From the IMG/VR virus record IMGVR_UViG_3300045988_157753: DNA of 35,343 nucleotides, one strand, 5' to 3'. The DNA is from a virus. The notes below the pieces were generated by a model. That model was not told the origin of the DNA. It saw only the letters and a list, made by a program, of their open reading frames with translations, and made no database searches. This document shows positions 7,969-34,118 of this stretch, in pieces (position 1 is the stretch's first letter; every line of letters begins with the position of its first letter). The translations under genes and the position numbers were made by a program.

Positions 7969-8660
7969 CTCGGAATGATCTCCACGCTCGTGATGCCGCC
8001 CGTCCAGCGGACGACGCTCTCTCCGGCCGGCAGCGTGGGAAACTCCGGTGCGGAGATGGTGCTGTTGAGGTTAAATGCCCCGTAGTAGGCGTTCTGCGTG
8101 CCCGAATCGAGCACGACCACGCCGCGGGGCATGCTGTTGATGGTGACGGTCACACCGCCCACCGTCAGGGTGCCGGCCCCCGTGCCGGTGACGGTGATCG
8201 TCGGCAGAGCCGTGAACGCGGTGGGGTTTCGCAAAACTTCCCCCTGCGCGGCCTGCACCGGCACATCTCCGATACGGAGGAACCTCTGCGGCTGGCAGTT
8301 AAACTCAATCGTCGCGCGGCCAAACCGGTGCATGACGCTCTCCACGTCCAGCGGGCCGGCAAAATAGGCTTTGCGGTAGGTCTCTACGTCGTAGCTGTCC
8401 TCCAGCTTCTGGTACCCACGCGGGCCGCAGAGCCAGTCAGCCACCGCGCGCATAGCGCGGGGGAGCCGCATCCGCTCCGCGCTGATGTAGATGCTGTACG
8501 CCTGCACGTAATTCTGGTAGGCGTCCTGGAGAAACAGCAGGTCGCCGTTTCGCCCGGGGACGGCCTGTGTGTCCAGCTTTCGCGCAGAAAGCTCCACATC
8601 CGGATAGCGCTCAACGACAACGTGGACGTCATCAGACGATACTCCCGCCCAGAAGATCAT
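7953..8660 (-). CDS. Distal tail protein (Dit)
   Basis: 235 aa directly after the tape measure (ATGA overlap), before Tal. Confidence 0.75.
   Translation of the reverse strand: MIFWAGVSSDDVHVVVERYPDVELSARKLDTQAVPGRNGDLLFLQDAYQNYVQAYSIYISAERMRLPRAMRAVADWLCGPRGYQKLEDSYDVETYRKAYFAGPLDVESVMHRFGRATIEFNCQPQRFLRIGDVPVQAAQGEVLRNPTAFTALPTITVTGTGAGTLTVGGVTVTINSMPRGVVVLDSGTQNAYYGAFNLNSTISAPEFPTLPAGESVVRWTGGITSVEIIPRWWTL
8098..8114. repeat. Copy A of dispersed 17-bp palindrome (GTGCCCGAATCGAGCAC)
   Basis: One mismatch from the perfect copy at 33384-33400; lies inside dit. Confidence 0.8.
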
Positions 8661-10714
8661 GCAAACACCGCCTCTCTGCGCTCCACCGCGTGCTGCAGAT
8701 TATACATGACAGCATCCGCCAGTGCGTTGACGTCCTGCCCCTCCGCGCCGTAGACGTTCAGCACTACGCCGCCCATGTTAGTGGTCGTGCCGCCGCCTAT
8801 GGGCAGCGCCGACAGCGCGGACAGCTCCTCGCCCATGTCGCGCATAGCTCTCGGCATGGCCTGCTCTACGCCCAGCGTGATGCCGGGCGGGATAAATTTT
8901 CCGACTTCATCGGCAAAAACCTTTGAGGGGGAGTGGATGCCAAAGAAGTCCTTGATCCAGCCGACAACACCATCAACCCAGCCCCGGAGCTTATCGTAAA
9001 GCCATGCTCCGGCATTCTTTATGCCGCTGAAAATGCCTTTAACAATATTTGACCCCAGGCTGATTGCACGACCGGGAAGCTCCCGCAGCCAGTCTATGGC
9101 AGACTGCACGCCATCGCGGACAGCTCTGACTATATCGCGAGCTTTATCCGAAACAGCTGTACCTACATTGGTAAAGAAAGACCGTATGTTCTCGCCGGCA
9201 GTGGTGAACCAGGATACAATGCTTTCCACGGCACCGGCTATCCAGTCTTTGACGCTGGTCCAAATCTCAATAACGCCATTGCGAAAGTCCTCGTTGGTGC
9301 TCCAAAGTGTGATAATTGCCGTAACTAGCCCTGCCACGAGGGTGATGATTATCCCTATAGGGTTGGCGTTCATAGCGGCATTAATAGCCCACTGAGCAAC
9401 TGTAGCCCCTTCGTTTGCCGCCTTAAAAGCGTTGATGGATGTAACCGCCGCGTTTATGAGAGACGCAACATTCCAGGTGATGAATCCGGCACCGATTCCC
9501 GCAATCAGAGAGACGATGTATTCGCCATTCTCCAAAATGCTGGAGACAAAGCTTGCAATGGTCGCCGAAAACGATTCCCAGTCTACGCTTTCCGTCCATG
9601 CCACGAACTCGGTCGTAATATCCTGGAGAACAGGGGTAATTGCCTCAAGAAACGGCTCACCAACTGCGGCCTTGAATTGCTTCCATGCCTCTTTGGCGTT
9701 ACCCGTAACATTTTCCCAGCCGTCCATCTCTCGGCTTGCCTGGCCATAGGCTCCGGACAGCTTTTGCGCCGCAACAATCTGATCAAGCAGTACCTGTGTG
9801 GTCTCGCCTGCCGTAACATCAAGGTCTTTGTACTCCTTACCCAGGCTTTTCATTGCCTGCGCGTTTCGGGTTGCTTCCGTACTTGCGAAGCCCAAAGCGG
9901 CGTCGTTTGCATAGTTTCCCTTAGTATATGCCAACACCTGTTCAGTGGCCTCTTCGAGGCTCCTGTCGTAGTATGCGGCTGCATCAGCGGCCGCATAGGT
10001 CGCTTCGGTGGCAAACTTCAAAGCCGCCGCGCTATTCATTCCGCTGGACTTTGCGTAGGCATATAGCTGGGTATAGGCCGATTTCAAACGCGAAGGCAGG
10101 ATACCTGCCGCATCACCAATAGTATTCAGCTCCTTGGTGGCGCTGGATGCAAGGTCTCCGAAGGTCTGCGCGAATTGTGCATTCGTTGCTTTGACCTCGG
10201 CTGCAGCATCAATCATACCGGATGCAAAGCCTTTTACCGCATCAGCCATTTTTTTAAGCCCATCCACCGCGAGCTCAGACAAAATATTCGCCTTCAGGAC
10301 ATCGCCGAAGGACAAGACCTTCTCGCCGCCCTCACGCATGTCATCGCCCAACTCCTCTACGCCGCTGGAGGTGTTGCGCAGCTCGCTTTGCATCTTGTTC
10401 AGCGTGGCAGTGGCTTCATTCAGCGCCTGCTGCCACTTCTGGGTCTTTTCGTCGCTCTCGCCGTACTTGGCGGCCGCCTTGCCGGTCTGCTCCGCCAGAA
10501 GCTTCACGCGCTCGCGCTGCACATCGATCTGCTTGGACAGCACGGAGGCGGTCTTGGCATTTCTTTCCTCCGCCGACGTGGCAGCGGTAAACTGCGAAGC
10601 CACCAGCTTCATCTGGCTCTCCAGTGTCTTGGACTGCTGGATGATCTGGTTAATCTGCCGGCGATACTCTGCCTCGCCGTCTACGCCGATCTTGGGGCCA
10701 ATGTTTACAGCCAT
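8657..10714 (-). CDS. Tape measure protein
   Basis: 685 aa, coiled-coil N-terminus, central hydrophobic segments, position after the G/GT chaperones. Confidence 0.9.
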   Translation of the reverse strand: MAVNIGPKIGVDGEAEYRRQINQIIQQSKTLESQMKLVASQFTAATSAEERNAKTASVLSKQIDVQRERVKLLAEQTGKAAAKYGESDEKTQKWQQALNEATATLNKMQSELRNTSSGVEELGDDMREGGEKVLSFGDVLKANILSELAVDGLKKMADAVKGFASGMIDAAAEVKATNAQFAQTFGDLASSATKELNTIGDAAGILPSRLKSAYTQLYAYAKSSGMNSAAALKFATEATYAAADAAAYYDRSLEEATEQVLAYTKGNYANDAALGFASTEATRNAQAMKSLGKEYKDLDVTAGETTQVLLDQIVAAQKLSGAYGQASREMDGWENVTGNAKEAWKQFKAAVGEPFLEAITPVLQDITTEFVAWTESVDWESFSATIASFVSSILENGEYIVSLIAGIGAGFITWNVASLINAAVTSINAFKAANEGATVAQWAINAAMNANPIGIIITLVAGLVTAIITLWSTNEDFRNGVIEIWTSVKDWIAGAVESIVSWFTTAGENIRSFFTNVGTAVSDKARDIVRAVRDGVQSAIDWLRELPGRAISLGSNIVKGIFSGIKNAGAWLYDKLRGWVDGVVGWIKDFFGIHSPSKVFADEVGKFIPPGITLGVEQAMPRAMRDMGEELSALSALPIGGGTTTNMGGVVLNVYGAEGQDVNALADAVMYNLQHAVERREAVFA

Positions 10715-10718
10715 AGGC

Positions 10719-11263
10719 TCACCTCACTCTCATAGCTTCGTCAAATGTCCAGTGTTTCTGTTTTTTCTTGGGGGTAGCCCCGTTATAAATGGCGAGGCAG
10801 GCGATCATGTCCAGCATTTCACCGTATCGCGTGACCATGATCTCCTGCCTCCCCATATTCAGCTTTCGCCCGTAAAACAGGAGCCAGGCAAGGTTCAGCT
10901 GGACGCCTGCGCCTCGCCGCTTTCTTTTTTTTCGGGCTCTACCTCCACCGTGGGCTTGCTGTCCTCCGCCCAAGCGGTCAACGCCGCCTGCTGCAACTGG
11001 GCGAACTCGCCCATCCGCAGGGTCAGGACTTCCTCCATCGTCAGGGGCTGCGGCTTATAGCTAGGAGCCTCGAAGGAGCGCGCTTGCTCGTACCCTTCGC
11101 TCAAGGCCACCATAATGGCTGCCGTGTCGCGGGTGATCTGCCCATACTGACCCTCCAGCACCTCCCCCAGACGGGTGATGTCGCCGTCCGGGCAAAGGTC
11201 GGAGATCTTAGCGGAGGCGCCCACCGTGAAGCGGAAGCCTACTTCTCTGCCATAGATCTGCAT
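10719..11263 (-). CDS. Tail assembly chaperone frameshift product (gpGT-like), -1 shift at 10925-10931
   Basis: In the G frame ..CCC GAA AAA AAA GAA..; a -1 slip on A AAA AAA joins exactly the 10719-10973 ORF frame (..RKRRGAGVQLNLAWLLFYGRKL..). Confidence 0.7.
10895..11263 (-). CDS. Tail assembly chaperone (gpG-like)
   Basis: 122 aa between major tail and tape measure; contains the slippery heptamer near its 3' end. Confidence 0.8.
   Translation of the reverse strand: MQIYGREVGFRFTVGASAKISDLCPDGDITRLGEVLEGQYGQITRDTAAIMVALSEGYEQARSFEAPSYKPQPLTMEEVLTLRMGEFAQLQQAALTAWAEDSKPTVEVEPEKKESGEAQASS
10925..10931 (-). promoter_or_regulatory. Programmed -1 ribosomal frameshift heptamer A AAA AAA
   Basis: X XXY YYZ pattern in the zero frame of the G chaperone; T8 run on plus strand at 10925-10932. 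Confidence 0.7.
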
Positions 11264-11275
11264 AGACGCCTCCTC

Positions 11276-33545: not shown

Positions 33546-33573
33546 ATTGTACCACTTCGACAAAATATGTCCA
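33546..33573 (-). promoter_or_regulatory. Minus-strand promoter: -35 TGGACA, 16 nt, TGg-TACAAT
   Basis: Minus strand reads TGGACAtattttgtcgaagtggTACAAT. Confidence 0.55.
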
Positions 33574-33639
33574 GTAAAATGCAAATTTTTTGCAAAAAAT
33601 ATATGTAAGCGGCAGACTTGTCGCGGAAAGAGGTCAAGA

Positions 33640-34083
33640 ATGAAGAAAATTTCCGTGTTTCTGATGGCCGCCGTTTTGGCTCTGTCCATCTGCGCCTGCG
33701 GCAGCACGCCCGCCAATAATAACGGCGAGCAGACTAAAGACCCCGCCTCTCCTCCCGACCTGACCGGCGAGTGGAAGCAGGTCAACAGCAACTCCGAAGA
33801 TACCTGGCAGGCGGCCACGATCTCCGGCAGCGAGATCATTATCAACTGGGTTTCCGATAACGGCGACACCAAGAGCCTGTACTGGGCGGGCACATTCGTT
33901 GCCCCCACCACGCCGGATGAGCCTTATTCCTGGGATTCTCAAAACGACAAGGAACAGACATCCCTCGCACTTCTGGCCAGCGGCGACGACACGAAGACGT
34001 TCACCTATGCCGATGGTCAGCTGAGCTACGAGGCCGGCGCTCTCGGCACCACTATGACCATCCGCATGGAAAAGGTCGGCTGA
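33640..34083 (+). CDS. Prophage lipoprotein (superinfection-exclusion-type candidate)
   Basis: MKKISVFLMAAVLALSICACGS signal peptide with lipobox-like Cys; ATG 33640 after GAAAGAGG; sits between repressor and integrase. Confidence 0.75.
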   Translation: MKKISVFLMAAVLALSICACGSTPANNNGEQTKDPASPPDLTGEWKQVNSNSEDTWQAATISGSEIIINWVSDNGDTKSLYWAGTFVAPTTPDEPYSWDSQNDKEQTSLALLASGDDTKTFTYADGQLSYEAGALGTTMTIRMEKVG

Positions 34084-34091
34084 ATAGACAG

Positions 34092-34118
34092 GGGCGGTGT
34101 CCGAATCGGGCACCGCCC
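34092..34118 (+). terminator. Terminator hairpin after the lipoprotein gene; contains copy E of the 17-bp palindrome at 34097-34113
   Basis: 12-bp stem GGGCGGTGTCCG/CGGGCACCGCCC (one G-T pair), followed by TTCTT. Confidence 0.65.

Follow-up and report, generated by a model that had tools for sequence, protein, structure and literature searches.

A Dispersed 17-bp Palindrome as a Candidate parS Site for a ParB Family of Temperate Phages, Plasmids and Conjugative Elements

Phage N15 is a linear, non-integrating plasmid prophage of Escherichia coli, in which the SopAB system uses four centromere palindromes. These are not grouped at the par operon but occur one by one across the genome, also in the late-gene regions. 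The proteins are of the F-SopB type and the sites are sopC-like. On the IncP plasmid RK2, which lives in Gram-negative hosts, the ParB homolog KorB and its ParA partner IncC use about a dozen dispersed palindromes, some at promoters and some far from them; KorB acts in partition as well as in global repression, which is long-range and depends on CTP, and the partner KorA is required. On chromosomes, Spo0J and Noc bind 16-base-pair (bp) palindromes (parS and NBS, respectively) that often lie inside genes, including spo0J itself, and the sites are conserved across divergent proteins. BisD on ICEclc is a case related to the KorB network. Here, we describe a 17-bp palindrome that is dispersed over the phage genome IMGVR_UViG_3300045988_157753 (35,343 bp, the whole of which was analyzed and is referred to below as the window), together with the parA and parB genes of the same genome.

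The likeness to N15, already drawn in the initial annotation of the window, fits: both phages are temperate, both encode a ParA/ParB-type pair, and both carry inverted repeats scattered singly over the genome. Unlike N15, this phage has an integrase, a tRNA-type attachment core, a Noc/Spo0J-like ParB and a 17-bp dyad of 8-1-8 form, one copy of which is located inside parB. With the KorB operators (OB) it shares the use of one palindrome dispersed over a mobile element; the OB palindrome differs in being 13 bp long (TTTAGCSGCTAAA), and the phage sites showed no promoter association in a consensus scan. With chromosomal ParB (Spo0J) and Noc it shares the protein layout, a CTP-binding N domain followed by a helix-turn-helix (HTH), and a site sequence that is conserved across very divergent proteins. 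The dyad itself, with its odd length and free center, is unrelated to the chromosomal TGTTNCACGTGAAACA, and the window contains no host-type parS. In addition, the phage ParB differs from Spo0J and Noc in its Cys-rich C-terminal half with an XRE-like tail, and in being carried on mobile elements rather than chromosomes. By analogy, N15 and RK2 KorB appear to be the closest described systems, with Spo0J and Noc closest in protein architecture.

We consider it likely that the palindromes are parS-type binding or loading sites of the large ParB of the phage (25306–26808), working with the adjacent ParA (26792–27583). The principle of ParABS is known; what would be new is the ParB subfamily and its candidate parS consensus. 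The arrangement has distinctive habits, namely the embedding of sites in a single reading frame, a copy in the linker codons of parB itself, and the reuse of sites as terminator stems. Neither the 17-mers nor a plasmid variant (GTGTCCCCCGGGGACAC) were found in any paper reached by a literature text search, and the dyad is not described in papers on the phages Cormatin and Saumur, on pCP13-type plasmids or on megaplasmid prophages.

The palindrome and its copies in the window

Five copies had been listed in the initial annotation, and all five were recovered at their exact coordinates, starting at positions 8098 (A), 12709 (B), 20960 (C), 33384 (D) and 34097 (E). Each is at most one mismatch away from the perfect dyad of copy D, GTGCCCGAATCGGGCAC, when read on one strand or the other, and C and E are exact reverse complements. 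The chance expectation given with the list, about 2 × 10^-4 occurrences of a given 17-mer with at most one mismatch, is arithmetically correct for uniform base composition. In 100 dinucleotide-preserving shuffles, with up to three mismatches allowed, the mean number of matches was 0.14 and the maximum was 1. An exhaustive search with the pattern GTGYCC-N5-GGRCAC, which had been proposed as a check, returned six matches in the window against 0.38 expected. The sixth copy, missing from the earlier list, is GTGTCCGGATTGGACAC at 26741–26757, inside parB. The six sites are thus dispersed from 8.1 to 34.1 kb of the window, as in the KorB and BisD type of network. A search near parAB for an alternative repeat array or palindrome that could be the true parS found none.

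An exact scan of the IMG/VR database for GTGYCCGAWTCGGRCAC gave at least 120 viral stretches, most of them with unrelated flanks. Across loci, the consensus GTGYCC-RA-N-TY-GGRCAC describes a dyad of 8-1-8 form whose central base is free; the central pentamers seen were GAATC, GATTC, GAGTC, AAGTT, AACTT and AAATT, and CCCGG on plasmids. In the motif-selected viral stretches, 75 arm pairs were GTGTCC..GGACAC and 61 were GTGCCC..GGGCAC, while only 12 were mixed. Co-variation between the arms is symmetric and extends to Y4/R14, to R7/Y11, to C8/G10 versus A8/T10, and to an arm variant GTGTTC...GAACAC. A hairpin could not bring positions 8 and 10 into a pair, as they are too near each other, and yet the two co-vary; the symmetry therefore points to recognition of double-stranded DNA by a dimer. 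Among the viral and genomic copies, the base directly 5' of the 17-mer is hardly ever A (1–4%) and the base directly 3' of it is hardly ever T (2%), and the recognized unit may be 19 bp. Complementarity of the flanks was 0.30–0.40, compared to about 0.25 by chance, and the palindrome is extended only in a subset of copies that resemble terminators. A general extension into longer hairpins was rejected on these values, in favor of a discrete unit of 17–19 bp.

Where the dyad lies in coding sequence, 140 of 189 copies are read in the frame that gives V-[PS]-x-S-[GD]-T, with 17 and 32 in the other two frames. These frame and strand statistics rest on a rough gene caller that uses an amino-acid-composition score, as calling by the longest open reading frame (ORF) mis-assigned strands at 60% G+C. 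In loci selected by ParB (described below), 52 of 54 V[PS]xS[GD]T peptides are encoded by exactly GTG-YCC-xxx-TCG-GRC-AC, whereas codon usage would predict about 0.5. Judged from this choice of codons, it is the DNA and not the peptide that is under selection; conservation of the peptide itself was rejected on the same count and by the existence of non-coding copies. The frame bias presumably reflects tolerable translation, the other frames giving Cys, Arg and His. In-frame embedding of this kind shows clearly how a DNA signal can override the choice of codons within a single reading frame.

Three of the six copies in the window are genic, and in all of them the GTG arm is read as a Val codon. 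Site A (8098–8114, GTGCCCGAATCGAGCAC) has one arm mismatch and occupies codons 183–188 (VLDSGT) of the Dit tail gene at 7953–8660 on the minus strand. At the orthologous positions in the relatives L121 and L122 there are two mismatches, both in the arms, and A is the weakest candidate of the set on this comparison. Site B (12709–12725, GTGCCCGAATTGGGCAC) has exact arms and forms codons 7–12 (VPNSGT) of a gene of the head–tail region (12381–12743, minus strand); it is kept in L121 (at 17721), L122 (at 6468) and L081. That A and B lie in structural genes in the same frame had been noted before and holds. The copy inside parB also has exact arms and is read as codons 18–23 (VSNPDT), which belong to the linker that joins the N-terminal MAKKFxM peptide to the ParB_N domain.

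Site C (20960–20976, GTGCCCGATTCGGACAC) lies between genes and runs right up to the GGGAGG ribosome-binding site of a gene for a small ParB_N protein (20482–20946, minus strand), as the annotation had it. The block of packaging and late genes starts here, and the relative L111 has an identical arrangement. Nine nucleotides (nt) upstream of site C there is a match to the DUF3800-VIII RNA (RF03075; 20986–21052, minus strand; 49 bits, gathering score 40.2). The match falls in the non-coding gap, about 310 nt long, that separates the small ParB_N gene from an HNH gene. No function has been assigned to this class of RNA (PMC5737381), and the window ORFs that were scanned included no DUF3800 gene.

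Sites D and E were described as the cores of terminator hairpins, and the folds bear this out. Site D (33384–33400) lies at the tip of a stem of 12 bp, which is bordered by an A-tract and, on the opposite side, by a T-tract. It has the shape of a bidirectional terminator (-21 kcal/mol on both strands) between an XRE-family gene (33059–33379, plus strand) and a small convergent ORF. This shape is explained by a 36-codon ORF on the minus strand, 33409–33519, that converges on D. Site E (34097–34113, GTGTCCGAATCGGGCAC) forms the tip of a 13–14-bp stem between the lipoprotein gene (33637–34083, plus strand) and the integrase gene. The two sites do flank the lipoprotein gene, as proposed, but the true start of that gene is the ATG at 33637 (MKKISVFLMAAVLALSICACG...) and not 33436, which leaves the small minus-strand ORF between D and the start codon. 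A G+C-rich stem-loop followed by a U-run, the signature of an intrinsic terminator, is present at D on both strands and weakly at E. The remaining copies (A, B, C and the one in parB) are coding or adjacent to a ribosome-binding site and have no U-run. The scan for consensus promoters showed no excess, and no promoter at the window sites.

Co-occurrence with parB in phages, plasmids and conjugative elements

The dyad and the ParB family are tightly associated from whichever side the loci are chosen. For the motif-selected side, all ORFs were clustered from 124 loci, comprising 120 motif-selected viral stretches, three relatives and the window, each locus spanning only about a quarter of its own contig. 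The most widespread gene families were homologs of the large ParB, in 31 loci, and of ParA, in 28 loci. For the other side, 80 viral loci (1.19 Mb) were fetched with ParB peptides located outside the motif (GREQIEYI and DPNNFYQL). These contained 181 sites with exact arms, with at least one site in 71 and at least two in 53 of the 80 loci; relatives in this sample had 2–6 sites per 20-kb locus. Counted on both strands, the true pattern matched 362 times, compared to a mean of 4.6 for palindromic controls with shuffled arms, an enrichment of about 80-fold in loci selected by ParB homology only.

A control sample of 80 loci was fetched by similarity to the DnaB helicase. Ten of these have the ParB and contained 15 sites in 185 kb, whereas the 70 loci that lack it contained a single site in 1.11 Mb. 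When the controls were restricted to a G+C content of 0.52–0.66, a site was present in 5 of 6 loci with ParB and in 1 of 27 without (Fisher p = 1.5e-4), corresponding to 11 sites in 104 kb and 1 site in 382 kb, respectively, a comparison that is partly confounded by phylogeny since the loci with ParB are the closest relatives of the window. Phage loci that lack the ParB are thus nearly free of the motif.

The position of the sites relative to parB is also conserved. In 57 of the 80 ParB-selected loci, there is a site between -60 and +120 nt of the parB start (codons of about 17–23), and other sites cluster 5–8 kb to either side of parB, matching D/E and C in the window. Many of these loci have a site 5–7 kb downstream of parB, comparable to site C. 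In bacterial genomes, ParB homologs of 29% identity have the motif exactly where the ParB alignment begins, at residue 18. Judged by ParB (WAK79880.1 in Cormatin, 45% identity), the closest relative among isolates is the Flavonifractor phage Cormatin; its parB contains the motif at the corresponding codons, and there are three copies of GTGTCCAACTTGGACAC elsewhere in Cormatin. In Saumur, an Enterocloster myovirus with a ParB of 27% identity, a copy with one mismatch lies between parA and parB. Three viral contigs of the DnaB-selected sample, of 27–29% G+C and with a ParB like that of plasmid pCP13 (L364, L371 and L385), have no canonical arms, and each carries 3–4 copies of GTGTTC-N5-GAACAC instead; this symmetric change of both arms may mark a shift in ParB specificity.

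The association extends to plasmids. A pCP13-like plasmid of Clostridium perfringens (54 kb, 25% G+C) encodes a ParB that is 34% identical to that of the window over residues 27–224, and contains six exact and two near copies of GTGTCC-CCCGG-GGACAC (GTGTCCCCCGGGGACAC), one of them between parA and parB. All copies on this plasmid are flanked by an A-tract and a T-tract and have the form of terminators. On pCS1 of Paraclostridium sordellii, three copies flank parAB. A Lactococcus plasmid with a shorter ParB homolog of 30% identity has no dyad, so the link appears to be to a ParB subfamily and not to all ParBs.

It extends further to conjugative elements. In a Lachnospiraceae element with a MobL relaxase, ArdC and TnpV, one 8-kb stretch holds seven exact copies, or ten with any center. 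A 94%-identical relative of this element has ten sites in 21 kb, and a parA–parB pair of the same family lies 10 kb from its relaxase gene. Three other relatives, L410–L412, have a MobL 70% identical to that of L188, decayed copies of the dyad (GTGTCTGAATCGGACAC and GTGTCCAATTCGGATAC), and no parAB within 10 kb of the relaxase gene. Their sites may be decaying after the loss of ParB, or parAB may lie further away.

Among the matches listed for bacterial genomes, those of low and intermediate G+C content were in gut Clostridia, and all multi-copy occurrences were in phages, plasmids or conjugative elements of Clostridia. The annotation had named an equal frequency in the host chromosome as the refuting result; among the matches listed, multiple copies occur only in mobile elements. 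The exact 17-mer was also listed once each in many unrelated genomes of high G+C content, such as Nocardia and Sphingopyxis; these singletons are probably chance matches, of which hundreds are expected in 596 Gb, or ordinary hairpins.

Candidate readers of the palindrome

The parA gene (26792–27583, minus strand) encodes a Walker-type (ParA/MinD) ATPase of 263 residues, with matches to AAA_31, CbiA and ParA in Pfam and to PHROG 164, "ParA-like partition protein". Its stop codon overlaps the start of parB (25306–26808, minus strand), so that a Walker-type ParA is directly adjacent to ParB, as in ParABS systems. The ParB product has 500 residues, comprising a predicted N-terminal domain of the CTP-binding type (GHRR), a central HTH and a C-terminal half that is rich in Cys. 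Taken alone, the sequence gives a weak match to ParB_N (21.3 bits, below the cut-off of 26.3) and aligns to Thermus thermophilus Spo0J over residues 47–187. A profile built from 19 family members aligned to Noc (7nfu) with E = 5e-16 over both the N domain and the HTH, and to Spo0J/ParB structures likewise, consistent with the domain order of ParABS proteins, in which a GxxR-containing N domain is followed by an HTH. Conserved in the family are the N-terminal MAKKFxL/M peptide, NFY, GLxQP, GHRR/GERR and the HTH region PGR-RD-VA...S..QL.R. ParBs of the phage clade add a Cys cluster (C246–C296 in an alignment of closer relatives) and an XRE-like LHCSVDYLLG tail (25306–26118; weak BetR match). Because the plasmid and Saumur ParBs have neither the Cys cluster nor the tail, the shared core of N domain and HTH is the likelier reader of the common arms. 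At E ≤ 1e-30, the family comprises 465 clusters at 50% identity.

We propose that a ParB dimer would read the two GTGYCCRA half-sites through its central HTH, leaving the central base unread. Binding of CTP by the N-terminal GHRR domain would then close the dimer into a clamp, which would leave the site and spread over the flanks, while the N-terminal MAKKFxM peptide would engage ParA. Five or six sites over 35 kb would bring the greater part of the genome within reach of ParB. The outcome could be a multi-site partition complex of the excised or replicating phage genome, and ParB might also dampen or insulate transcription, like KorB on RK2. The three kinds of location, in short gaps next to ribosome-binding sites, in terminator stems, or in genes in the frame that gives a harmless, hydrophilic V-P/S-x-S-G/D-T, would follow if sites are needed throughout a tightly packed genome.

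The palindromes might instead act in RNA, as hairpins that terminate transcription, stabilize or process the mRNA, or bind an RNA-binding regulator, with the link to parAB incidental. The strong extended stems of D and E speak for such a role, as do the T-run of D on the minus strand, which matches an A-run on the plus strand, and the A- and T-tracts around every copy on the pCP13-like plasmid. Furthermore, many intergenic copies lie 0–4 nt upstream of a Shine–Dalgarno sequence, and non-Watson–Crick arm pairs on the sense strand are more often G·U than A·C (34 to 16, p = 0.015), an excess that can, however, arise from a C-to-T bias on the non-transcribed strand. Hairpins do not account for a symmetry that reaches positions 8 and 10 around a single free base, where pairing is impossible, nor for stems that are unextended outside the terminator subset. 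About two thirds of the copies lie in coding sequence, where termination or cleavage would be harmful; sites C and B fold no better than shuffled sequences (z = -1.2 and -0.4, respectively); both orientations of the center are found upstream of genes; and no Rfam family overlaps any copy, the match beside site C being the only one in the window. The contrast between loci with and without ParB would also be left unexplained. A role in RNA or as a terminator is apparent for some copies, and a double use is probable for those that resemble terminators (D, E and all pCP13 copies), but such a role fails to explain the family, and we consider it an unlikely account of the palindromes as a whole.

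Other proteins could also be the readers. A 17-bp dyad with a free center is typical of operators of the Cro/CI type, and the palindromes could be operators of another dimeric regulator of the phage, such as one of the XRE-family HTH proteins (30654–31109 or 33059–33379). Site D lies directly downstream of the latter gene, and homologs of each of the two genes occur in 13 motif-selected loci. This is fewer than for ParB and ParA, however; there is no copy in the divergent immunity intergenic region (31110–31344), one copy is fixed at the 5' end of parB, and the dyad is also present where parAB occur on plasmids and on a conjugative element, the other genes of which are unrelated to those of the phage. 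XRE operators are thus very improbable. We give even less credence to the small ParB_N protein (20482–20946), which the initial annotation had offered as a second possible reader. It has a bona fide ParB_N domain (PHROG 620) and site C ends at the ribosome-binding site of its own gene, but its similarity to Spo0J and Noc is confined to the N domain, and no HTH or other DNA-reading domain was detected in it. Homologs were present in 14 of the 124 clustered loci, compared to 31 for the large ParB, and none was seen beside the plasmid or conjugative-element copies. The suggestion of the large ParB, made in the same place, is the one that the comparative association favors. A generic host repeat, either REP-like or a common terminator, with no tie to the phage, is equally hard to credit: the single exact 17-mers in unrelated high-G+C genomes would fit it, but they are accounted for by chance, and neither the confinement of multi-copy occurrences to Clostridia mobile elements among the matches listed nor the near absence of the dyad (1 site in 382 kb) from phage loci of similar G+C content that lack the ParB would be expected of such a repeat. 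Clustered regularly interspaced short palindromic repeat (CRISPR) mimics, boxes for LexA, CcpA and Spo0A, and lambda boxB were also considered and dropped, as none is known to match the dyad.

Several observations weigh against the assignment of the palindromes to the large ParB. The support is by association throughout, and the DnaB-selected control set is partly confounded by phylogeny, as noted above. Nine of the 80 ParB-selected loci have no site with exact arms and, conversely, L410–L412 keep 1–3 sites with no parAB in the 20 kb seen. Many intergenic copies resemble ordinary bidirectional terminators, and the G·U excess hints at an RNA-level or strand-specific effect. The parAB genes lie in an early/replication operon of a phage that carries an integrase, for which a classical role in plasmid partition is not obvious. 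Finally, a different parS, likewise predicted only, has been proposed for plasmids of the pCP13/pBCNF5603 type, namely an AT-rich stretch of 117 bp that lies downstream of parB and contains inverted repeats (PMC4459074). This putative parS concerns the same ParA/ParB family, and differs from the GC-rich dyad GTGTCCCCCGGGGACAC that is found at 6–8 places on the plasmid.

On balance, we retain ParB as the probable reader of the dyad. Because the phage integrates, and because parAB are located in the early/replication operon, where there is no room for a promoter of their own, the role of ParB may lie with excised genomes during replication or, as for KorB and BisD, with transcription, rather than in classical centromere function for a prophage plasmid. 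A broader reading, which we regard as possible but doubtful, is that one parS "dialect" (GTGYCC-N5-GGRCAC) and one ParB family form a common organizing system of gut-Clostridia phages, conjugative elements and toxin plasmids, with the phage ParB, expressed from the early lytic/replication operon, acting mainly as a CTP-dependent sliding clamp, similar to KorB and BisD. Such a clamp would control or insulate transcription and deal with genomes under replication, instead of serving as the classical centromere protein of a plasmid. Co-resident elements could then cross-talk, in the form of incompatibility, hitch-hiking of elements without ParB, or exclusion.

If ParB does bind the dyad, this would define the centromere or loading site for the family, which numbers about 465 clusters. 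Its members are found in Clostridia of the gut and in pathogenic ones, on temperate phages, on conjugative elements and on toxin plasmids; examples are the pCP13-like plasmids of C. perfringens and the toxin plasmid pCS1 of P. sordellii. To our knowledge, no parS has been demonstrated for these elements. The 17-bp dyad would also provide a simple sequence marker for such elements and their par systems in metagenomes, and it would raise the question of why integrating prophages keep a genome-wide ParB network in an early lytic operon. Cultivable systems are at hand in Flavonifractor plautii YL31 with Cormatin and Enterocloster clostridioformis YL32 with Saumur.

Genomic setting of the phage

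The window is a complete genome of a temperate siphophage. Its first and last 99 nt (1–99 and 35245–35343) are identical, which represents the overlap of a circular assembly. Almost all genes are on the minus strand, in the order tail, head, TerL, P27-type TerS, HNH endonuclease and a replication block with a DnaD-like initiator and a DnaB helicase; parA and parB lie inside the replication block. The replication block is followed by a plus-strand lysogeny block of XRE regulators, a lipoprotein moron and a tyrosine integrase. The closest relatives in the databases are unannotated phage contigs from human feces. Cormatin is an inducible prophage of F. plautii, for which prophage coordinates and induction are given in PMC10197239. 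With Cormatin as the nearest isolate, the host is probably a member of the Oscillospiraceae, with a G+C content of about 60%.

The terminal repeat contains a sequence resembling a tRNA 3' end, GGTTCGACTCCCGTACCCTGCTCCA, which adjoins the integrase gene (34122–35282) and is probably the attP core; no complete tRNA was found by ARAGORN. At the entrance of the packaging module, between the small ParB_N and small terminase genes, there is an unusual occupant, a gene at 19151–20485 (minus strand) for a protein of 444 residues with weak matches to B12-binding and radical-SAM domains and no PHROG family. On the lysogeny side, 31800–33038 (plus strand) encodes an exonuclease of the DnaQ/RNase_T type fused to a BRCT domain, and a 50-nt imperfect palindrome (31805–31896) is located at the 5' end of this gene.

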